Assembly (NCBI RefSeq): GCF_964194155.1
Contig: NC_135903.1
Coordinates: 8,308,001-8,372,000, forward strand
Direction: 5' to 3'
Source of the DNA: Cetorhinus maximus
Taxonomy: Eukaryota
Length of the DNA stretch: 64,000 nucleotides
In this document: positions 15,697-60,524 of the stretch, one piece after another
Layout: each line of letters starts with the position of its first letter
Position numbering within the stretch: the stretch's first letter is position 1
Notes under the pieces: generated by a model
The model's input: the letters and a program-made list of their open reading frames with translations, nothing else
Told to the model about the DNA's origin: nothing
Databases searched by the model: none
Program-made: the position numbers and the translations under genes

Positions 15697-17197
15697 CATT
15701 GCTAACAAAAAGAGGATTTTTTTTTGTTGTCGGAGCTTTTTGTCTTATATATCAGGACAATTCTCAATAATACCAAATGTAAAGGGAACAACAATTTATA
15801 CTGTATAAGGGAGTGCTGATTGGTTGGCAAGTGGACTCTGGTAGAGGTGCTGCCATGGATCACACACCAGTGGATGGTGACTGACAGTTAACTGCCAAGC
15901 ATTGTTTGAAATTTAAACCAGGCAGCTTGACTCTGATTGGTCAAGGCATTGCCTGAGGAATGAACCAGCGAATGGCTGTCATTTATTTTGTTCAGCTGAA
16001 ACAGGTGCAATGTATGTATATTTTCTTTCTGTCTGCAAAGAACAGGGCCATGTATATGTAGCTTCCAGTGCTTGCAAATGTGCCACATTGAGAGCCGGAC
16101 TGATGACCTTAAAATTGGTTGGTCAGTGTAATTCTTAGCACAAAGAATTACTTAGAAAATATTGTCCAATCGCCAAATTACGTCTAATGTTAATCACATC
16201 TAATGTTGGACATTGTGTTTTGAGTTTTGCAAACACGGGCTGGTTGGGTACAGTCTGTGAACAGCGGAAGTGACATGTTGTTTGCTATGATCCACCAGTC
16301 CTTGGGACGTGCGGCCAACGTACTTAGCATCACACGGGCACTGAAATTCATATACCACATTACTCGTTTGTGGGATAGGCAGAACATCTTTTTGGCTTGA
16401 CAGCAGCGTCCTGTTAATGGCAAATACCAATTGTGTCGCTACTGCATGAACTCAGTCTACCTCAGATCACTCTGGAAGGGAAAGTTATCTCAGAAATTTG
16501 AGCAACAGGTGAAGCTAGCCGTTTCACGCTGCTACTACGCAGTAACAACACAAGTGGTATTCGCCACTAACAGGATGCTGCCATCAAGCCAAAAAGACGT
16601 TCTACCTATCACACAAAGGAGTATTGTGGTATGTGAATTTCAGTGCCCGTGTGATGCTAAGTATGTTGGCCGCACGTCCCAAAGACTGGGCGATATCAAA
16701 CAACATGTCACTTCTGCTGTTCGCAATGGGCAGGGTACAGGCTGTACCCAACTTATATAAGCTTATATTTCACCTCTTTTCTATTTTTACTTAGTTCTGT
16801 TGAAGAGTCATATGGACGCGAAACATTAACTGTATTCCTCTCCGTAGATGCTGCCAGACCTCCTGAGTTTTTCCAGGTATTTTTATTTTTGTTAAGTGAC
16901 AGTCATTCACTGGTTCATTCCTCAGGGCAATGCCTTGACCAGAATCAAGCTACCTGCTTTAAATTTCAAACAATGCTAGGCAGTTAACTATCAGTCACCA
17001 TCCACTGTGCATTCTCCCTGGCAATGCCTCCACCAGAGTCCACTGGCCAACCAATCAGCCCTCTCTTCCTATACAGTAAAAATTGTTGTTCCCTTTACAT
17101 TTGGCCATCTTGCGAATTGTCCTGATGAGTGCAAGATAAAAAGCTTTGACCAAAAAAAACCTCTCTTTACAGCAATACTCAAATTCTGTACTACCAA
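15697..17197. mobile_element. Penelope-like retroelement remnant with GIY-YIG endonuclease fragment, head-to-head inverted duplication
   Basis: ORFs 16200..16430(-) and 16431..16760(+) both encode VV(Y/C)EFQCPCDAKYVGRTSQ, a GIY-YIG motif pair with Cys spacer. The 3' UTRs are mirror copies, each ending in a decayed hammerhead. Confidence 0.85.
16753..16892 (+). mobile_element. Hammerhead-family short element nested in the Penelope right arm
   Basis: AGTT-CTGTTGA-A-GAGTC(ATATG)GACGC-GAAACATT-AACT plus the family tail. Confidence 0.8.
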
Positions 17198-18381: not shown

Positions 18382-19186
18382 GGACTGGATTTAATGGGGC
18401 ACCACAATCCCCCTGGTTGGTGGGGAGTCCACCCACGATCCCAATTGCTGCCCCACAGCCATTTAATGCTGGGAGCTGCATTAAGTGATTGGGACTCCTG
18501 CCCCTCTCTCATGACGAAGTTGCACCTTAGAGAGCCGCTGGCTGATTGGATGGCCAGCAGCTCTGCAGTACCAGCAGCTCCACTGGGAGCGCTGCTGGCC
18601 CCTGATGGGGCTACAGGCAGTCCATCACACCGAGGAACCTGTGGTTGGTAAGTCCGGGACAGGCCTTGACGAATGGGGTGAGGGGGGAGGTGAGAGGCCA
18701 GCTGGGAGGTTAGAGGGAGGGAGGGGGGGGGGGGGAGGTGTGCCTCCAATGGGCCCAGGGGGTTTGGAAGAAGCGTGATATTTGACTTGAAACATTAGTT
18801 CTGTTTCTCTCTCTGCACCGATGTTGCCAGAGCTGCTGAGCGTTTCCAGCACTCGTTGTTTTTATTTGAGAAACCCCCCCCACATTGCCAACACAAGCCC
18901 GTGCAGCTAAAGATGCCGGGCTTCCCGGATGACATGGGCCTATTGTCACTACGGGTAAAATAATGGCGGCAGCAGGTTGAGGCTCTTAAGTGGCCTTTAA
19001 CTGGCCACTAAATGGCCTCAATAGGCCCAAGGGTGAACAAGTTGCTCGACAGCTCCCCTGTTCCCCCATTTAATCAGGGCGGGGGCAGGGGCAGGCAGAC
19101 AGGCGGTGGGCACGACGCCCGTTGGATTTTGTGTGTCGCCTCCCGGCCTTCAAACCCACCAGGAAGGGGAGAGCACGATCCAGCCC
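18382..19186. mobile_element. GC-rich MITE with 3-bp TSD (AAA); a related right end at 1-241
   Basis: Termini GGACTGGATTT / GGGCTGGATCG(rc). AAA flanks. Carries a nested hammerhead-family fragment. Confidence 0.7.
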
Positions 19187-23464: not shown

Positions 23465-23575
23465 TCCAGTTCTGATGGAAGATCATTGACTCTTTGTCAT
23501 TCCCTCTGCACAGATGCTGCCTGCCCTGACAAATGTTTTCTCTTTATATTCCAGATTTCCAGCATTTGCAGCATT
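23465..23575 (+). mobile_element. Degenerate copy of the hammerhead-family element (other + copies at about 18765-18870, 43360-43460, 51885-51975; tail only at 47915-47972)
   Basis: cagttctgatg...cacagatgctgcc...cagatttccagcatttgcagca resembles the better copies. Confidence 0.7.
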
Positions 23576-23679
23576 ATGAATTATATGGGAGACTGCCCAA
23601 CACACAAATTCCCAAAACCTGATCTCATGTGTACAGGCAGAACACGCTTTTAATTACAAGGAAAGAATCTTGTGAGCAT

Positions 23680-25114: not shown

Positions 25115-25891
25115 TCCATACTCTGACCCCAGCTCACCATAATCTCAGCCTTCCACACTCACCAACCCATCAAATCCTCACTGGATTCACTCCTGGCTTG
25201 GAAATGATGACACAAAATGTTAAAACATTAGGATGCTTGGGGACTTCTTCACAATTCAATCTCTGATCTCAGCTTGGCAGAAAGCAGCTGAAAAACTGGC
25301 CAGAGCTACTCACCACAGAATTGAACAGTACAGGAGCTAGCCTTAAAATAAAAGGAAAACTTGCATTTATTTAGCACCTTTCACAACCCGAGGACATCCC
25401 AAAGCACTTCACAGCCATGGAAGCATTTCTAACAGGGTAGTCACTCTTGCAATGTGCGCATAGCAAGATCCCGCACAATCAATGAAGTAAATGAGCAGAC
25501 AACCTGTTCATTTAGCGACGTTGGGTTGAGGGGTAAATGTTGACCAGGCCACAGAGGGGAACTCTCAGATAAGCAAAGAGGAAAATTAATTGTTGACTTC
25601 TGGGGCGAGGAAGCAAGACCTGCTGCCTTTTTGGGGTCGTTTTCTCCAGCACTGCGTTCAATCCCCCTACAATCAGAGCTCACTCACCAGCATCTTATCC
25701 AAGCAAGAGCCTAGATTGCTGGGGAGCCGTTTAACCACAAGGGGCCTCATGACAAAGCACAGTCCTATTCTCACCCAGCAACGACCCGTTTCTGGCTGAG
25801 CTCACTGCAAGGTTAACTGTAGCAGGGACCCTCGTTCTGGGAAATTAAAGATCCAACGGCACTAGCTGATCAGCAGGAAGGTCTCCGAGCG

Positions 25892-26466
25892 AGAGAAAAA
25901 CAGAAAATGCTGGAAAACCTCAGCAGGTCTGACAGCATCTTTGGACAGTAAAACAGAGCTGATGTTTCGAGTCCGTATGACTCTTCTCCAGAGTTAAAGA
26001 GAAGTGGAAATGTGATGAAATTTATACTGTTTAAGGGGGGGAGGTGGTGGAGCAGGTGAAGCTGGATAGAAGGCCAGCGATAGGTGGGGGCAAAGGAAAG
26101 ATTGACAAAGATGTCATGAATTAAAGGACAAAGGGAGTTTAATGGTAGTTGTAAGGGCTAAAACTACTACCACTAACCACGACCATTAACACTCCCTTTG
26201 TCCTTTCATTCATGACATCTTTGTCAATCTCTCCTTTACCCCACCTATCGCTGGCCTTCTATCCAGCTTCACCTGCTCCACCCCCCCCCTTAAACAGTAT
26301 AAATTTCATCACATTTCCACTTCTCTTTAGCTCTGAAGAAGTCATACAGACTCAAAACGTTAACTCTGTTTTTCTCTCCACAGATGCTGTCAGACCTGTT
26401 GAGTTTTTCCAGCATTTTCTGTTTTTCTTTCATATTTCCAGCATCCGCACTACTTTGCTTTCATCT
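25892..26466. mobile_element. Hammerhead-bearing Penelope-like element as a roughly 250-bp-arm inverted repeat
   Basis: Arms about 25894-26146 and 26182-26428. Flanked by AAGGTCTCCGAGCG (25878-25891) and AAGCTCTCCGAGTG (26467-26480). Confidence 0.85.
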
Positions 26467-30391: not shown

Positions 30392-30584
30392 GACTGAAGC
30401 AAAATGCTGCGGATGCTGGAAATCTGAAATACAAACAGAAAATGCTGGAAAAACTCAGCAGGCCTGACATCACTTCTCTTTAGCTCTGAAGAAGAGTCAC
30501 AGGGACTCAAAACATTAACTCTGTTTCTCTCTCCACAGATGCTGCCAGACCTGCTGAGTTTTTCCAGCATTTTCTGGGTTTTTT
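30392..30584. mobile_element. Hammerhead-bearing Penelope-like element with inverted tail and 14-bp TSD
   Basis: Minus-strand tail about 30397-30467, then a plus copy with core CTGAAGA-A-GAGTC(ACAGG)GACTC-AAAA. TSD TTGAGCAGAAGCAA at 30378-30391 and 30585-30598. Confidence 0.85.
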
Positions 30585-31204
30585 TTGAGCAGAAGCAAAT
30601 TGCGTTAAAAGAGAGCGCCCAAGAGAATGCAACAGTCTTGGAGAGCGAGCCGAATTGAAAAGGGGACACTGTATAGTCGGTAACCAAGGTGAGTCAAAGT
30701 TTTAAAAAAATGGTATAAACAATTCAAATAGGTGCAGGAGTATGTGAGAATTACATTTATAAGGTGCTTTTTTGAAGGGGGGCATATTCAAATGGAAGCA
30801 GGTCATGTGAAGTATGATGAGTTCAAACCTAATGGCCATGAATATAACTCGTTATTGACAAATCCGATAAAGAATTCAGGAGAAACGTCTTTAAAAGATG
30901 GTTCCACTTTTGGGAGGAGCCCAAAGCTAGAGGTGACCATTATAAAATGGTCATCACCAATAAATCCAATAGGGAATTCAGGAGAAATCTCTCTACTCAG
31001 AGTGGTGAGAATGTGGAACTCACTACCCAATCAAACTTTTAAGATTAAGCTAGATAACGAATGAGCAATAAAGGTCATGTATTTGCTGATAAGATTGTAT
31101 GAAGTAGGATGGGATGAGGCTCATGTGCAGCATATAAACATCAGTTGGGCTGAAAAGGTGGTTTCTGTGCTGTCCATTCTATCATTAGGACAGACATGAT
31201 TTTT

Positions 31205-41180: not shown

Positions 41181-41853
41181 ACAATCTAACAGGTCTTTGC
41201 AAACACATGTAAATTAGTTAACTATTACTATTTGCTTTTGAGACTTTTCATTTGCACAAAGTATAATCTTGTCTCTCCTTCAGCTCCCTCGGCCCTAATC
41301 TCTGGGATTCACTGCCTTAACCTCTCGACTTCTCTCTCCTCTAAAACATTCCATGCCTCATTCATTTGTCATCTGTCCCAATGTGGCTTGGTGGCAAATT
41401 TTATTTGGTAATGCTCCTGTAAAGCACCTTTGGGCATTTACCACATTAAAGACACTACATAAATGCAAGTTGTTGTTGTTATATCTACCTGAGCAATGTT
41501 GTGGCACGTTTTTAGGTAAAGGTGCACTAAAATGTCTAAATTTATTTATCCCTGAACCCTGTGCCCTCTTAAATACATATAAGATTGCAATGCATTCTCT
41601 GAAATATTACATTATCCCTCCCTCAACATCGTTCTGCCCACCTATCATAATGAGAAACTATAAATTTATGTGCCCATAATTCATACATCCATCGTGCATA
41701 TATCCTCAGCCCGCCAGCTGCTTTTGCCTGAATGAATTAACACAACCACCTCTTATAAGCGAGCCCCCAGTACTCAAGCAGCTGAGCAAATCAAAACATC
41801 ACTGCAGTGCTTGATCCCTTGGAAGAGTAACCCTTTGTTGACTGGATTGCATT

Positions 41854-42365
41854 TTGCACACTAGAGCCCCCTATGGGTTGCACACTAGAGCCCCCTATGG
41901 GTTGCACACTAGAGCCCCCTATGGGTTGCACACTAGAGCCCCCTATGGGTTGCACACTAGCGCCCCCTATGGGTTGCACACTAGCGCCCCCTATGGGTTG
42001 CACACTAGCGCCCCCTATGGGTTGCACACTAGCGCACCCTATGGGTTGCACACTAGCGCACCCTATGGGTTGCACACTAGCGCACCCTATGGGTTGCACA
42101 CTAGCATACCCTATGGGTTGCACACTAGCGCACCCTATGGGTTGCACACTAGCGCACCCTATGGGTTGCACACTAGCGCACCCTATGGGTTGTACACTAG
42201 AGCACCCTATGAGTTGCACACTAGCGTACCCTATGGGTTGCACACTAGAGCACCCTATGAGTTGCACACTAGCGTACCCTATGGGTTGCACACTAGCGCA
42301 CCCTATGGGTTGCACACTGGAGCACCCTATGGGTTGCACACTAAAGCACCCTATGGGTTGCACAC
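41854..42365. repeat. 24-bp minisatellite, 21 full units plus a partial (TTGCACACTAGCGCACCCTATGGG consensus)
   Basis: Directly visible period of 24. It generates the repetitive ORFs LHTSAPYG, MGCTLAHP and SVQPIGCA. Confidence 0.98.
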
Positions 42366-42653
42366 CCACCCCATTTCCCCATATCCCCACTTCCGTACTC
42401 CCCACCCCACCACCTCACCGTGCACTCCCCCCCACCCCCCCGCACCCCACAACTACCCACTTCCTTTAAGTTTCGTTTTGTTGCACTCGGAAATGAGAGA
42501 AAGATTTGGAACTTTCATAACCCCAGTACCTCCCAAAGCACTTTACAGCCAATGAAGTACTTTCGAAGTGTAGTCACTGTTGTAATGTAGAAGGCGCAGC
42601 AGTCAATTTGCACACAGCAAGTTCTCTACAAACAGCAACCAGATAATGACCAG

Positions 42654-43284: not shown

Positions 43285-44267
43285 CAGATGCTCTGTTTAT
43301 AGAGATGTTGGTTGAGCAATGAAATATTGAGCAGGACACTAGGGAGAATTCCCTTCTGAAGTTCGGATAAACAGCCATCAACCTGAAACACTAACTGTTT
43401 CTCTCTCCACCACTGCTCCATGACCCACTGAGCCTCTCCAGGATTTTCTATTTTTATTTCACGACTCCTCTTTTCTCTGAAGTAGTGCCGTGGGATCTTT
43501 TACACCCACCTGAAAGACAGCACCGTTGACAGTGCAGCATTCCCTCATTACTGTACTGGAGTATGTCGGACTTTAGATTATATGCCCAAGGCTCTGGAGC
43601 GGGGCTTGAACCCGTGACCTTCTGAATCGGAGGCAAGAGTAGGATGGCCGGATGCCCGGATTTATACTGCACAATCCGGCTTTTAGTTGGTCCGGCCACT
43701 GTCCAGTACAGAATGACTTTATATCCGGTACTTTGTGCCGTAGCACGTTTACCACAGTGAAGCACTGGCAAGGGCCTGTGCTTGTTCCTTTTCCCATCTG
43801 CAGCGACTCAGAGTTACTGGGACACCAAACACAGGTTTTTTTTTTGTGTTTTTTCCCCATCCCCTCCCCTTACACCTCTGTTGTCCCTCAAACCGTGAGA
43901 AACCTCTGTATGCAATGACATCACGCCGTGTGTCACGATGGTGTCCAGTATTAGTGGCCTTTGCTAGTGGCCACTCTCGGCGAGAGCTGCTGAGCCAATG
44001 CTGACACCGATAGTGGAGGGATGATATTGCTGGGAAATGGAATACCTTAGAATTCAGGCATTTTGAAGCAGATAGACTCAGGCCCAGTTAGGCTCACGTG
44101 CAGCATGTTCACTGACATGGGCCCGTCAGACTGTTTCTCTGCTGTAAATTCTGACAGCATAGATAGATGTAGAGCTCTCTGGCTCTCTCTCCTAGCTCAT
44201 GACATGTTCTCCTCAGCCTCAACCTCAGAATGAAGCCCCATCCCTCTCCTGCCCTACTGCACCATAG

Positions 44268-47879: not shown

Positions 47880-48534
47880 CTGTAATTGAATAACAGACAC
47901 ATTTTTAAGGATAGTATTCCCAACATTTTCTGTTTTTATTTCAGATTTCCAGCACCCACAGCACTTTACTTTTGCACGATTTATTAAGGCTGGTGTAGAG
48001 TAAACAACACGTAATCCTCTGCTGAGATCCAACTCACCCCCGCCCCAAACACTATCGGCAGAAATCCATCGCCTTCCATTTAATAACGAGGGCCATTTTT
48101 CTTCAAAGTGTACAGTTTGTGTTTCACTCACAGTGGGGTCATTAAAGCAGCTTATTAATGTCCCATTCTCACCTTAAAACACATGCTAATCTCTAACTGT
48201 TTGTCTAAGTGGATCGCTTTAGCACCTCATTACTGGCAATTATCAGCACCCAGCTATTCCAAGTGTCACCTCGTGCTTCAAGAGCTTTCAATCATTTTAA
48301 ATGGCGCTATTAATGTAAATATAATTTCTCTCAAAAAAATGTGTGTTATTGTACGCCTGTTACTGCCTATTCCCATGTGTTAAAACTGCTGGAAGATGAT
48401 TGACTGGAGACATTGCACAGAATTTTTCATTTGGCTAGAACCAATGTGTTTTCATGCTGCACTATGGTATACAAGGTAACATGTTAGAAGGATTTTGAAA
48501 TGTTACCTCCAGAGCAATAAGAGGGTCACTAAGA

Positions 48535-48992: not shown

Positions 48993-51900
48993 ACCAAACA
49001 TTGGAGCTGAGTATAGCAGATTGAGGATTTAATTGGGTAGATATGAAGAATCCACTTCCTCTGGTGGGGGAATCCAAGGGGGCATTACCTTAAAATTAGA
49101 GCTGGGCTCTTCATGGACAAAACCTGGAAGCAATTCTGCATTCAAAGGGTGGTAGAAATTTGCAACTCTTTCCCCCAAAAGGCTTTGGATGCTGAACCTT
49201 AAATGAAGCTTCCAAAGTGGAGATTGGTAGATAATTACTGGGTAAGGGTACCGAAGAATGTGATGCCAAGTCAGGATAATGGAACTGAGGTTTAGACCAG
49301 CCATGATCTGATTGAATGGCAGTGCAGGCCTGAGAGGCTTAATGGCTGCTCCTAATGTTCCTCTCTCATTGCTGTTTTTGGAACATTGCCGTGTACATAA
49401 AACAGCCATCACATTTATCTACATAACAGTAGCTGCATTTCAATATAGTTAATTATTTGAATGGCAAAATAAAGTAATATTCTGGTGTATATCTTTTACT
49501 GTTAAAGTTTCCCACACAAACTTTCTTATCAGGCATTTTCCTATTATAACTAATGTGCTTTGCCTACAACATTTCAAAAGTAATACATGAGCTGCCAAGT
49601 ACTTTGGAAGGTCCAGGGGGTGGGGGGGAGCACAGTGAGATTAGTTGCGTTATTCTTGCAGAGAGCTGGCACAGACATGATGGGCCGAATGGCTTCTTCC
49701 TGAGTTGTTACCATTTTATGCTTCTATCATACATGCAACAAAACCTGTACCTGATATTTATATATTATGTTGTTTGTCCTTTATTTTTCTTATTCATTCA
49801 CTGGATGTGGGTGTTGTTGGCATTTATTGCCCATCCCCAAGTTCAGCGGGTGTGGCTTGCTAGGCCAGTTCAGGTGGGCAGTTAAGAATCTTTGGTGTGG
49901 GACTGGAGTCACATATAGGTCAGCCCAGGGCAGGTTCCCTTCCCCAAAGGACATTCGTGAACCAGTTCAGTTTTTACAACAAGCCAACAGCTCCATAGAC
50001 ACTTATACTAACACCAGATTATCATTTTTGCAGGTTCTTTTGAAAAAACTTCAATTCAAATTCTCCAATGGACATTGTAGGATTTGGCCTCCTGTTTTGT
50101 GGATTATTAGTGCAGTAACAAAACCACTGCAGACCCTTTGAACTGTCTACGATCTAAGTGACGAGATCTCCCAGCTCAAATACATCAGGATCAGCAAACA
50201 GATGTCTCAGGTTCCAATGTACAGGATTTCCAATGGAACTTTGAGCACACAGGACTCAACAGTGGAACTGATTCAAACCCTCTGTGGAGACCTGAAGTGG
50301 GAGTTAGGAACAGAAAAGACAAACTAAAAGGCAAGTGTCTTTCTACCTAGTGTTCTAAGTATTGCAAAAGATTTACAGCACAGGAACAGGCCTTTCAGCC
50401 CAACTGACCTATGCTGGTGCTTATGCTCCACACTAACCACCTCGCACCCTTCACCTCGCTCAATCAACATATCCTTCTGTTCCTTTCTCCCTCATGTTTT
50501 TATTTAATTTCCTTGTAGTAGTGAGTTCCACATTCTAACCACTCTCCGGGTAAAGAATTCCCTATTGGATTTATTAGTGATATAACCTTATATTTATGGC
50601 CCTGGGTTCTGGACTCGCCCACTCACAGAAACATCTTCACTATGCTGAGCACGTCAAATCCTTCATAAAGGCCTCTATCAGGTCAACCCCCAGCCTTACC
50701 TTTTCAACAGAAATGATTCCCTGATGATTTAATCTTTCCTTATAGAGCGCGCACTGGGTATAATTTTAGCAAATCTCTTTTGCACCTTCTCTGATGTCTC
50801 AATGTCCTTCTTAGAGAAGAATAGAAAAAAATTTCAAATTTCTCTTTCTAAAACGTCACCTAGCTGAGGAAGTACATAATACAGGGAGCACTTGAAGGAC
50901 AATTCGTTAAGGGTGAGCCAGGCTGTTCCGACTGTTATGGGATTGCCTCAACACCTCTGGGCTGGAGGGGGAAGCGGGTCGGACCTGCGTGTTTGATTAG
51001 TTTTCAGTAATCGTTGTTGGATAAGCAATCAGTGGCAGGAATGAAGGATGTGTGGCGTAGTGGGTAGTGTCCCTGTCTCTGGGTGAGGAGCTCCGGGTTC
51101 AAGTTCCACGGCAAGACTTGTTGGCCATGGAAGGAGTGTTTGTGACCCGGTTCAATGGGCTGATAATCAGCCTGGGAATCCTTCCACCACCTCCCCACTA
51201 TTCCCCAAAGGGAGAAATTGTGTGTTGAAGATATGCTAAAAAAAAATAGTAGTGGGAATTCTGCTTAATCTCCTTCCTTCCCCACCCCAACCCTCCAATG
51301 TGCCCCTGTAGAGTTATGACTAAACATAAAGTTCTCTACAAGCAGCTGGGCTGAGAGCAGCTAGCTCAGCATAGGCTGTGAGCCTGGCCTCTTGCTGATC
51401 TGTCCAGCTCCATTCCACCTCAGAACAGAACAGTGTTCGTATCAACTGAGCCATGCAATGCTGCCTGAGTGCTTACTGCAGCCAGGACAGAGGGTGATTG
51501 ACAGTGGATTACATGGACATAATCCAATCAAAGGGCTCAGATGACATCACAAGAATCCCAAGAGATGGAGCTTCAACCCGTCTGTTCATCAGCCGGGTCA
51601 CGAGACGAGATTACTGCCTGAAATCCTGACAGACGTCTCCAAACACTTCAATTACATAGCGTTTAACAGACAATGAAACTTACTTCTGCACTGAACTCGA
51701 AAGCCATGAAACTGGACCACACGGCTCCTTGTTTATGTTGGGAGATGTGAATTAGAATAAGATTTGCATTCTCTCACAGTCACATGCTACATTATAATTT
51801 CACCTCATCTTGAAAGCATAGTAAAGAAGGAACATGGGAGCAGGGATTAATGCAAAAGCAAAATCTGACCCTTCAAACAGAACTGCTCAGTCATCAACCT

Positions 51901-54469
51901 GAAACATTAACTCCTGTTTTTCTCTCTCCACAGATGCTGCCAGACCTGCTGAATATTTTTAGCATTTTCTGTTTCCTTATGTAGAAGCAGAAATTGGCCA
52001 TTCAGCCCCTTGAGCCTGTTCCACCAGTCAATTAGATCATGGCTTATCTGCATCTTAATTGAAACACATTTCATTGAAGCATATCAAATTCTTAGAGGGA
52101 TTCTCACTAGGTGCTGAAAGTCTGTTTCTCTGATTGAAGAATCTAGAACTAGGGGTCTCTTCTCTCTGAGGGTCATGAATAATTGGAATTCTCTACACCA
52201 GAGAGACCTGAAGGCCAAGACATTCAATATAGTCAAGCCTGAGGTGACAAATTCTCGCACAAAAGGGTTATAGGGAACAGACAGGAAAGCAGAGTGCAGG
52301 CGAATATCAGATCAGCCATGATCTTACTGAATGGCGGAGCAGCATGAGGGGCCGAATGGCCTACTCTTGTACTACAGTCTCAGAATAAGGGGTCGGCCAT
52401 TTAGGACTGGGATGAGAAGAAATTTATTCGTTCGAAGGGTTGTAAAACTTTGGAATTCTCTACTCCAGAGGTTGTGGATGCTCCTTGAGTATTTTCAAGT
52501 TGAGATTGATTTTGAACACTAAGGTAATTAAGGGTTATCAGAACAGGGTGGGAAAGTGGAGTTAAGGTAGAAGATCAACCATAATATTATTGAATGGCGG
52601 AGCTGGCTGGAAGGGCTGAATGATCTACTCCTGTTCCTACCTCATGTTCATAGCTCTACCTACCTGCAACTGGCTAACAGGGCAGCAACTAGAGTGAGGT
52701 TATGCATTTTCTGTTACTGATGCTCTCGCAAAAATTCAGTACCTGCTGCTACAATGACTCAGTTTGTAAATATAATGCTTGGTGTGATGCTGAAACAGAC
52801 AGACTGGATCACCTTAGGTTCAATCCACACAAAGTATTGAGTTGGCTGATCTCAACCAGGGCGACAACAGATGTGAGCCAATTGATGACAACACCTTGGC
52901 AAAATGACCATGTCTTGACATTAGGCGAGAATTGGATTCAAATATGATGCCTATTACAGTCAAACAGCCAGTTGACATTTACTGCTAAAGATAACACATG
53001 AGGAATAGCTACTTATACTTAGTTCAGGGCGACTGCTACCATGTATGGAACTGTGACCTAGTGTGAAATAAGATCCCTAGGTGAGGAAAGGTGAAAATTG
53101 GTGTTTGCTCATGTCTGCAAACATTCCAGGGCTGTAGTGTTTGTGATATGGCATGTACTGCATACACAGCACATAAAAAAAGACCTGTATTTATATTGTG
53201 CCTTACATAAATTCAGGACGTCCCAAAGTCTTTTACATCCATTGAAGTACTTTTGAAGTACAGTCACTATTGCAATGTAGGAGGCACTGCAGCCAATTTG
53301 TGCACAGCAAGCTCCCACAATCAACAATGTGACAATGACCAGATAATCTATTTCAGTGATGTCGATAAACATTGGTCAGGGCACCGAGGTATCTTCCAAA
53401 CTAGTGCTAAGGATCTTTTAAGTCCACCTGAGAGGGCGGACAGGATTTCAGTTTTAACATCTCAGCTGAATGTTGGCACCCCCAACAGTACAGCACTCTC
53501 TCAGTACCGCGTTGACACGGCCTGGGTATTTACACTGAAATCTCTGGAGTGCGGTTTGAACCCACAGCCTTCTGACTTAGAGGCAAGCCGTCTACCAGCC
53601 GAGTCACGGCTGACACTCATTGCTGATTTCCTAGACCTCGCGAAAGGTTTTAGAGATATTTTTGTGCAGGTTGTTCAGTGCTTCCTGTCACAGCCCTGTG
53701 GCTGCTCTCAGCTGGGTGGGCAGCTGTGTGATCTTCCCTTTCCTTTTGCACGGTTGAGTGACTATGCGAACGTGTCCACGTACGTATGGGGGCGTTCATT
53801 GCGTGTGTGCGTGTGTTGGTGGAAGGAGGTAGAGAAGAGGGAGAGAGTGCTGATGCACATTATCTGTTTCTGGCATAGTTCAAGAATGAAACCCAGACGA
53901 TGGCCACGTACAGTGGGACTTGGTGTTTTATTTTAAATTTTGATTTGGAGTTGGAGAGGCTGGTGCCCCGTCACTGGTTTCTGGGCCCACGCTGTTAAAT
54001 CAGTTTTCTGTAGACCCTTCAATCCGTCACTGCACTGCTGTCAAAACAGGATCAGCAAGTCGACTGCTAACTAAACCAGCAGCTGAGCCCTGGAACTTCC
54101 TGGCTCACATATGGAGGCTTAACCTCAGAATCAGTTTGATGGACATTATACCCTACACGGATAATTTGGGATTACCATGATGGGGGTTTTGTCTCACCTA
54201 CAAATCAGATTACTGCCTTGTAACATCTACATGGACTGGCAGTACTGTAGGCTGAAATATTAACCTCTTCAACTATCAGCTAAATAATGGGGTTAAGTCA
54301 CAACAATGATTATCGCACTCTCCCTAACATGATCAGCCACAACAATGATTAATCACACTCTCTCCAACATGACCCTGGCTACTGCCAAAACAAAGCAAGC
54401 AGCAGCAGCACACACAACTCTACCAGGACATACCTCACCTGGGGTGAGCTTCTGATCACATATTCACAA

Positions 54470-59069: not shown

Positions 59070-60372
59070 CTGCAAAATAATGAATAAAAAGTCTGCAATT
59101 TGCTTCACAAAACTTGCATTTACATAGCACCTTTAACATAGTAAAACGCCCCAAGGCGTACATTATCAGGTAAAACTGGACACCGAGCTATATAAGGAGA
59201 TAGTAGGACAGGTGACCGAAAGTCTGGTCAAAGGGGTGGCTTGTAAGGATCATCTTAAAGAAAGAAGAGTGAGGGAGAGGTTTAGGGAGGGAATTCCAGA
59301 GCTCAGGGCAGAGACAACGCAAGTCACAATTGCCAATTGGTGGCGCGATGAAAATCGTGAATGCACAAGAGGCCGGAATTGAAGAAACTCAGAGCTCAGA
59401 AGATTGTAGGGCAGGAGGAGGATACAGAGATAGGGAGGAGTGAGGCTATGGAAGGATTTGAGCACAGGATGAATATTTTAAACTCGAGTGGCCTCTGGAC
59501 TGAGAACTAATGTAGATCAGCGAGCACAGGGGTGATAGAAACAGGCAATTTTTTTTTACATAACTAATTTACTTTTCCTGTGAAGACCTCGATTCTTAAT
59601 GGTATATAATCACTGGCATCAGATGCACCCTGGTAACTTACACAAGGGAATGTTATTCATAATCATTAATCAAACTTGGATGGTTCGTGTGGGCAGACTG
59701 TGTGACCTCAAGGGCATCGCAGCTGAGCCTGATCCAGATTTCCCCCCACTCGCATGGGCGTTTTCCAGCAAGGGGGCCCGTGGGCCATCATCAGGTGTGG
59801 AAACTTGGACCATTTACCTCTTTTCTCTCTCTAAACACTGAGGCCAACTGTAGCCCACTTACTGCTACCCTGACTGCCATCAGCTAACTTAGCAGAGCCC
59901 AGGGGATGAACACTGAACACATTTGAATCTGTACACACTCACTGAATCATGAGAAGTGGATGGAATAAAAGGAGTTCATTCCCTTGGAAGTATGATAAAG
60001 CTTCGCTAAAACAACCACCGATGACATTTGGTATATAATGAATAGGGGCACACAGTATAAGAGAATAAATAACGATGAATTGATACAACATACTGGGTAG
60101 GGTCAACCGTGGCTCAGTTGGTAGCACGCTCGCCTGTAAGTCAGAAGGCTGTGACTTCAAGGCTCACTCCAGAAACTCGAGCACAGAAATCCTGGCTGAC
60201 GCTCCCACCGAAGTACTGAAGGAGTGCTGCACTGTCAGAGGTGCCGTCTTTCAGATAAGATGGCCATTCGAGACCCCACATGCCATCTCAGTGAGACATG
60301 GTGCTATTTTGCAAAAGAGTATCCCCAGGGTCCTGGCCAATATTTATCCCTCAATGTCATTATCACATTGCT

Positions 60373-60524
60373 ATTTCAAGTCCACATGACTCTTCATCAG
60401 AAGTCATTTTCCTCTTTAGTTCTGATGAAGAGTCATACTGACTCGAAACGTTAACTCTGTCTTCCTCTCCACAGATGCTGTCAGACCTGCTGAGTTTTTC
60501 CAGCAATTTTTGTTTTTGTTCCAG
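60373..60524. mobile_element. Hammerhead-bearing non-autonomous Penelope-like element, head-to-head (short minus arm 60373-60404, plus arm about 60405-60524)
   Basis: 60386-60402 is the exact reverse complement of 60420-60436. The family tail ccacagatgctgtcagacctgctgagtttttccagca follows. Confidence 0.75.
60418..60456 (+). ncRNA. Minimal type I hammerhead ribozyme motif, intact core
   Basis: AGTT-CTGATGA-A-GAGTCA(TAC)TGACTC-GAAA-CG-T-T-AACT: stem I AGUU/AACU, stem II of 6 bp, palindromic ACGU in place of stem III. Predicted cleavage after 60452. Confidence 0.75.

Follow-up and report, generated by a model that had tools for sequence, protein, structure and literature searches.

A hammerhead motif in a short shark repeat: probable fold-back insertion of a terminal piece of a protein-coding Penelope-like element

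A short and abundant repeat of Cetorhinus maximus carries what reads as a complete hammerhead ribozyme, with an inverted piece of the same motif just upstream. What kind of element is this, and has the ribozyme a role in it? The first-pass annotation of the window—the whole stretch of 64,000 nucleotides that was analysed—saw in the repeat no ordinary SINE but a non-autonomous, retrozyme-like derivative of a Penelope-like element (PLE), and in the inverted piece an antisense lock on cleavage. The analysis described here points elsewhere: positions 60374–60524 very probably stem from a protein-coding PLE, whose terminal part was inserted here as a fold-back, truncated at its 5' side and likely dead on arrival.

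The motif lies on the forward strand at 60418–60456, with a predicted cut after 60452. Stem I is AGTT/AACT (60418–60421 and 60453–60456), the CTGATGA core box (60422–60428) is followed directly by an extra A (60429), and the stem II arms (60430–60435 and 60439–60444) lead into the GAAA core box (60445–60448), the palindrome ACGT (60448–60451) and the predicted cleavage triplet GTT (60450–60452). Every core element and coordinate previously claimed was thus confirmed from the sequence, and the core requirements C3-U4-G5-A6-N7-G8-A9, G12-A13-A14, A15.1-U16.1 and H17 are all satisfied. A minimal-hammerhead descriptor has one match in the window, at this site, bearing out the label of minimal type I hammerhead; in a genome sample of 136 evenly placed 10-kb stretches (1.36 Mb) it has 25 matches, against none in the reversed sequence. 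A 35-nt motif pattern has 1,724 exact matches genome-wide and none in the control, so the hammerhead is not a chance occurrence. Covariance models and descriptors had both been proposed as checks, and only the descriptor agreed: between 59800 and 61200 no Rfam hammerhead model matched at E values up to 10, and sub-threshold miRNA hairpin models were the only matches. The six pairs claimed for stem II are present in the window copy, but the sixth is a private mutation, the opposite base being G in 19, A in eight and T in two of the 29 closest copies, and the position being paired in two of 45 distinct alignment rows; the family stem is therefore 5 bp long. In a predicted single-copy fold there is no stem III and stem I has a pair probability of at most 0.08. 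The minimum of a two-monomer cofold was not the hammerhead dimer, a method uninformative for a pseudoknotted dimer. For cleavage, the window hammerhead is predicted to need either dimerisation or the protein of the element. The first ATG downstream (60475–60477, forward strand), a putative start codon, lies 22 nt past the predicted cut, and the long frame of full-length copies opens at another ATG roughly 115 nt beyond this one.

The parentage of the repeat is indicated by its longer relatives. Positions 60409–60524 (forward strand) form a 5'-truncated PLE 3' end, or pseudo-LTR terminus, without the tail of about 30 nt. They are identical at 113 of 116 positions to the terminus of L033, a 2.9-kb copy that matches the reverse transcriptase (RT) model RVT_1 above cut-off and is itself 5'-truncated and frameshifted. 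The 29 best genome matches have a common 3' end and ragged 5' ends, reaching from a few bases to over 1.5 kb upstream, and four long ones extend into nuclease-like and RT-like frames; the window stub itself encodes neither RT nor GIY-YIG nuclease. These extensions, together with the L033 terminus, indicate that what looks like a short element is a truncated terminus left by an autonomous lineage of PLEs. The N-terminal part of L033 gave 14,269 first-look candidates in the genome. Among 20 loci selected for long open frames (one of them wrongly oriented), six have a hammerhead on both sides of an ORF of 810–926 codons, at a spacing of 3.27–3.31 kb; the flanking repeats are direct and of differing length, as in a pseudo-LTR partial tandem. 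The suspected Penelope link is thereby borne out, and the element is indeed no ordinary SINE. Four of five long ORFs match both RVT_1 and GIY-YIG weakly (E 2e-6 to 3e-3), with GIY-YIG scores below the Pfam cut-off, and the domain scan of the remaining one (L066) gave no match. A CX4CX2C linker precedes the nuclease in translated parent ORFs; since Neptune/Nematis-type elements carry a CX2-5CxxC linker there (PMC8557442, in the part available), this points to that type, an assignment made by the linker motif alone. Among the copies examined, no full-length copy of the window's exact subfamily with both repeats was recovered.

Short ends of this kind are numerous. With a threshold of 25 bits, a profile search of the 1.36 Mb sample detected 133 arms, and none in the control; once one edge match and one duplicate were dropped, 131 arms in 106 events remained, which scales to about 300,000 insertion events in 3.99 Gb. 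Their 3' ends are bimodal, near 110 and at 145–150. Ten further PLE-end arms lie in the window itself (16787–16896, 18762–18879, 23468–23580, 25891–26001, 26323–26461, 30397–30588, 43355–43469, 47913–47971 and 51897–51974); none passes the hammerhead descriptor, and two pairs among them are fold-back events with flanking repeats.

Has the ribozyme been maintained in these copies? The motif alignment comprised 47 sequences, namely the window copy and 46 of the 58 sampled arms that span the motif, 12 gapped or degenerate arms being omitted. Stems I and II remain paired across them, with G-U pairs and some two-sided changes, and H17 alternates mostly between U and C. The covariation score of 0.179 was exceeded in none of 500 shuffles (slid controls 0.02–0.08), a test that is inflated by relatedness, with few independent two-sided changes. 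In 44 copies the core carries 11 mismatches in 385 positions and the downstream sequence 36 in 1,356 (p=0.86), and 36 of the 58 arms have broken hammerheads, the others being A6 (five), U6 (eight) or C6 (nine) at core position 6. Paired stems across variants, in a core that decays like its flank, suggest that it is the master lineage, and not the inserted copies, that maintains the structure. Conservation between subfamilies extends to the downstream flank, so that identity by itself does not set the core apart. Of the expectations placed on a family alignment, stem II pairing was thus retained, but preferential conservation of the core was not found, its decay after insertion equalling that of the flank.

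Core position 6 (element position 17) varies among the copies. Of the 58 sampled arms, 14 carry U there and 12 carry C, and as subfamilies succeed one another the base changes from A through U to C (loci L066–L085 and the sampled loci). A tree of 72 long copies, built with the ribozyme excluded, is ladder-like—with a midpoint root and rough support—and places A6 forms on the longest branches, then U6, and C6 on the shortest. All 17 hammerheads in 3' repeats behind long open frames carry U6 or C6, so the core is non-canonical in the youngest copies with intact ORFs; the subfamily of the window copy is older and has the canonical A6. In other hammerheads, A6C strongly lowers activity in Mg2+ (PMC7151607; PMC3088659, both in the parts available).

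The places at which copies begin bear on how they were made. 5' ends were mapped by alignment to long copies, element position 1 being window position 60409. Among 69 young events, 26 begin at element positions 1–26, at the upstream edge of the hammerhead. Only nine start in the adjoining upstream stretch of 130 nt (p 9e-14), with 23 more beyond it, and 11 start in the downstream stretch of 52 nt (p 5e-6), the latter comparison being weakened by under-detection of very short copies. The pile-up holds at 93% identity and without inverted events. Its mode is at positions 10–11, an initiator-like A: in the window this is A 60418, the first base of stem I, within TTAGTTC (60416–60422, forward strand), which may function as an initiator. 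The 72 long copies read TTAGTT or TCAGTT here, with the A at position 10, and in 64 of them a TATA-like heptamer begins 28–31 nt upstream of it, a spacing that represents one inherited feature and not 72 independent cases. The TATA-like box, which in longer copies lies 29–30 nt upstream of the counterpart of A 60418, is missing from the window stub. Both labels, TATA-like and initiator-like, follow general promoter consensus motifs. On this sequence evidence, the mRNA of this PLE may begin near the first base of stem I; a point against it is that Drosophila Penelope has a TATA-less internal promoter (PMC2377424). The short stubs would then arise by internal priming on uncleaved RNA, as run-off cDNAs, which agrees with results on Anolis (PMC11167929, in the part available).

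A sequence of events can be proposed on this basis. The parent is an element of about 3.3 kb, with one RT and GIY-YIG frame and a hammerhead in both flanking repeats. Its RNA would begin close to where stem I begins, downstream of the TATA-like box of the upstream repeat. RT may prime internally on the uncleaved RNA, 100–140 nt downstream, at either of two sites about 30–35 nt apart, as is suggested by the existence of two classes of 3' end and by the in vitro results on Anolis. When the 5' repeat is primed, synthesis would run off the RNA 5' end, giving stubs of 100–150 bp, and in about 30% of events, as the pattern of copies indicates, two such cDNAs appear to be inserted head-to-head between one target duplication. 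At the window locus, a deletion would have taken the left target duplication and all but 29 bp of the inverted arm.

A wider reading can be offered only tentatively, as a possibility that we would not back at even odds: that the TATA-like box and initiator start the mRNA on stem I, that the stubs, several hundred thousand in number, are 'strong-stop' cDNAs run off uncleaved RNA, that cleavage clips off a capped leader of about 35 nt, and that the passage from A6 through U to C is the detuning of a switch whose stems were kept. If true, cleavage just before the first AUG would be a decapping switch on the PLE's own translation, and hammerhead cleavage would not be a transposition processing step. 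A single sharp start cannot account for all the copies, since six of the 26 clustered ends, and that of the window copy, lie as much as 9 nt upstream of the base where transcription is predicted to start. Such ends upstream of the start, the spread over positions 1–26 and the many ends that are inversion junctions would suit a different origin of the pile-up, in which RT stalls, switches template or is end-joined at the structured hammerhead and transcription start plays no part. This explanation is less likely than not. RT would reach stem II from its 3' side (positions 32–36), where ends are rare (3 of 88 arms at positions 27–39); the mode falls on the initiator-like A; and the excess remains in non-inverted events, with 14 starts in the pile-up against seven in a stretch five times longer.

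Far less probable is the proposal that the short copies are a separate retrozyme-like element which self-cleaves, circularises and amplifies from short masters. The copies are indeed mostly short and abundant, their 5' ends do cluster, and animal retrozymes derive from PLE repeats (bioRxiv 10.64898/2026.07.22.740005, in the part available). However, the 5' ends are spread over 26 nt and trail, from a common 3' end, to over 1.5 kb upstream into RT and GIY-YIG coding sequence, the cleavage site is the starting point of only two arms in 132, and short and long copies carry identical core variants. The eight same-strand pairs within 1 kb in the sample are irregular, one of them being a mis-anchored duplicate; no regular head-to-tail array was found among them in the 1.36 Mb, and the window copy is single. 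This part of the first-pass annotation is accordingly unsupported, and the reading as a truncated end of a protein-coding PLE is preferred.

The inverted arm fits the same origin. A perfect 17-nt inverse (60386–60402) of 60420–60436, separated from it by 17 nt, is present as had been described, and belongs to a complete arm of 29 nt (60374–60402, reverse strand) that is 86% complementary to the forward copy and divided from it by a 6-nt junction (60403–60408). The arm is a second, cut-off copy, covering element positions 12–40 with core and stem II. As had also been noted, its core is truncated; the sequence ends after GAAA, with neither a cleavage triplet nor a stem I partner, and therefore cannot be a ribozyme. 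Such arrangements are common in the family: 31 of 106 sampled events have an adjacent inverted piece, 25 with both arms detected, and the arm-spacer-core geometry recurs at over 100 loci, most of them counted on either strand in the 115 forward and 117 reverse exact matches; the spacers vary among the 100 matches listed. In two-armed pairs (27, being the 25 sampled and two in the window) one arm typically has the tail and the other lacks it, and 18 share a flanking repeat of 10–16 nt, a count with no null control behind it. No target duplication was found at the window event, which abuts a broken older repeat; together these suggest deletion of most of the left arm. Longer elements carry long inverted 5' copies of 260–600 bp (L083:3253–3850, oriented, and L081, L024 and L020), a large-scale form of the same fold-back. 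An adjacent inverted 5'-truncated copy and a tail are described features of PLEs (PMC8557442, in the part available), and the arm at 60374–60402 is likely a by-product of fold-back insertion and not a regulator.

That it is a selected antisense lock, switching cleavage off according to transcript start, is scarcely credible: the arm and core are predicted to fold at -34.6 kcal/mol (z -5.9), and stem II pair probability to fall from 0.89–1.0 for transcripts starting at 60405 or 60418 to 0.00 for those starting at or before 60386, so that the predicted effect stands, but such loss is expected of any fold-back insertion, the junction differs from locus to locus, cores are not under selection after insertion, a monomer that lacks stem III and rarely forms stem I offers little activity to lock, the window holds no intact same-strand partner, and no host exon or gene was found in the unmasked frames scanned (117 of 216).

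The older interspersed repeat that breaks off at the inverted arm (60096–60373, forward strand) is unrelated to the PLE. It has 43 matches in the 1.36 Mb, its relatives extend past the junction, and similar fragments occur elsewhere in the window; a tRNA-like head seen by eye suggests that it is SINE-like, and ARAGORN found no tRNA gene in it. Frames in a tandem repeat at 41794–42552 give Cornifin and octapeptide Pfam matches that were judged spurious. A 3' splice site before the ATG at 60475, with its branch point at the cut, was considered and rejected, because the youngest subfamilies have CG in place of the AG. In younger subfamilies a GT donor and an AG acceptor enclose a stretch of about 85 nt between the first and second ATG (for example L085:3368–3459, with equivalent junctions), which resembles the retained 5' intron of other PLEs; the donor is missing in the window's subfamily, and no spliced joint of this kind was among the joints listed from the contigs of six presumed RNA runs, one of the listings giving 15 of 62 joints.

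As one of about 300,000 neutral insertion events, the locus itself matters little. The family is of use because the role of PLE hammerheads is still open (PMC8557442): the copy ends argue against cleaved RNA as the template and give a precise predicted transcription start, and the dated natural series of A6, U6 and C6 variants lends itself to asking if there is any selection for efficient cleavage.

Minimal hammerheads in PLE repeats are an already known kind, published in 2014. The comparisons that follow refer to the parts of the cited sources that were available. Cervera and De la Pena (PMC4209133) described such hammerheads in the pseudo-LTRs of metazoan PLEs, including fish Neptune and Poseidon elements and those of coelacanth and Xenopus; cartilaginous fish do not appear among the hammerhead-bearing PLEs in the available part of that paper, and a literature search for shark PLE hammerheads found nothing specific. 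The elements described here share with those PLEs a 4-bp stem I, the extra base after A9, G10.1-C11.1, a palindrome at 15.2–16.2 without stem III and a hammerhead in both repeats of full elements, and in both most copies are single and truncated, with some close opposite-strand pairs. Stem II has 5 bp here against 7–8 in Schistosoma, and the younger subfamilies differ from the published PLE hammerheads in being U6 or C6. With the Neptune/Nematis-type EN+ PLEs of Craig et al. 2021 (PMC8557442), the parents have in common an RT followed by a C-terminal GIY-YIG and the CX2-5CxxC linker, as well as partial tandems, the adjacent inverted 5'-truncated copy and a tail of 30–40 bp. For the Anolis Poseidon element PAc, Frangieh et al. 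2024 (PMC11167929) showed internal priming, an uncleaved template and protein-assisted cleavage; as here, there are two 3' end classes separated by the tail, a hammerhead at the repeat–ORF junction and copies that do not start at the cut site, whereas the PAc start codon lies inside the ribozyme. Animal non-LTR retrozymes likewise have a type I hammerhead and PLE ancestry (PMC7229834; bioRxiv 10.64898/2026.07.22.740005), and the latter source reports them in its one chondrichthyan; they form tandem arrays of fixed units, whereas the locus here is a single truncated end with an inverted scar. Finally, phage Bcep176 has a natural A6C hammerhead (PMC3088659, PMC7151607), which the youngest subfamilies resemble in carrying C6, while the window copy differs from it in retaining the canonical A6.
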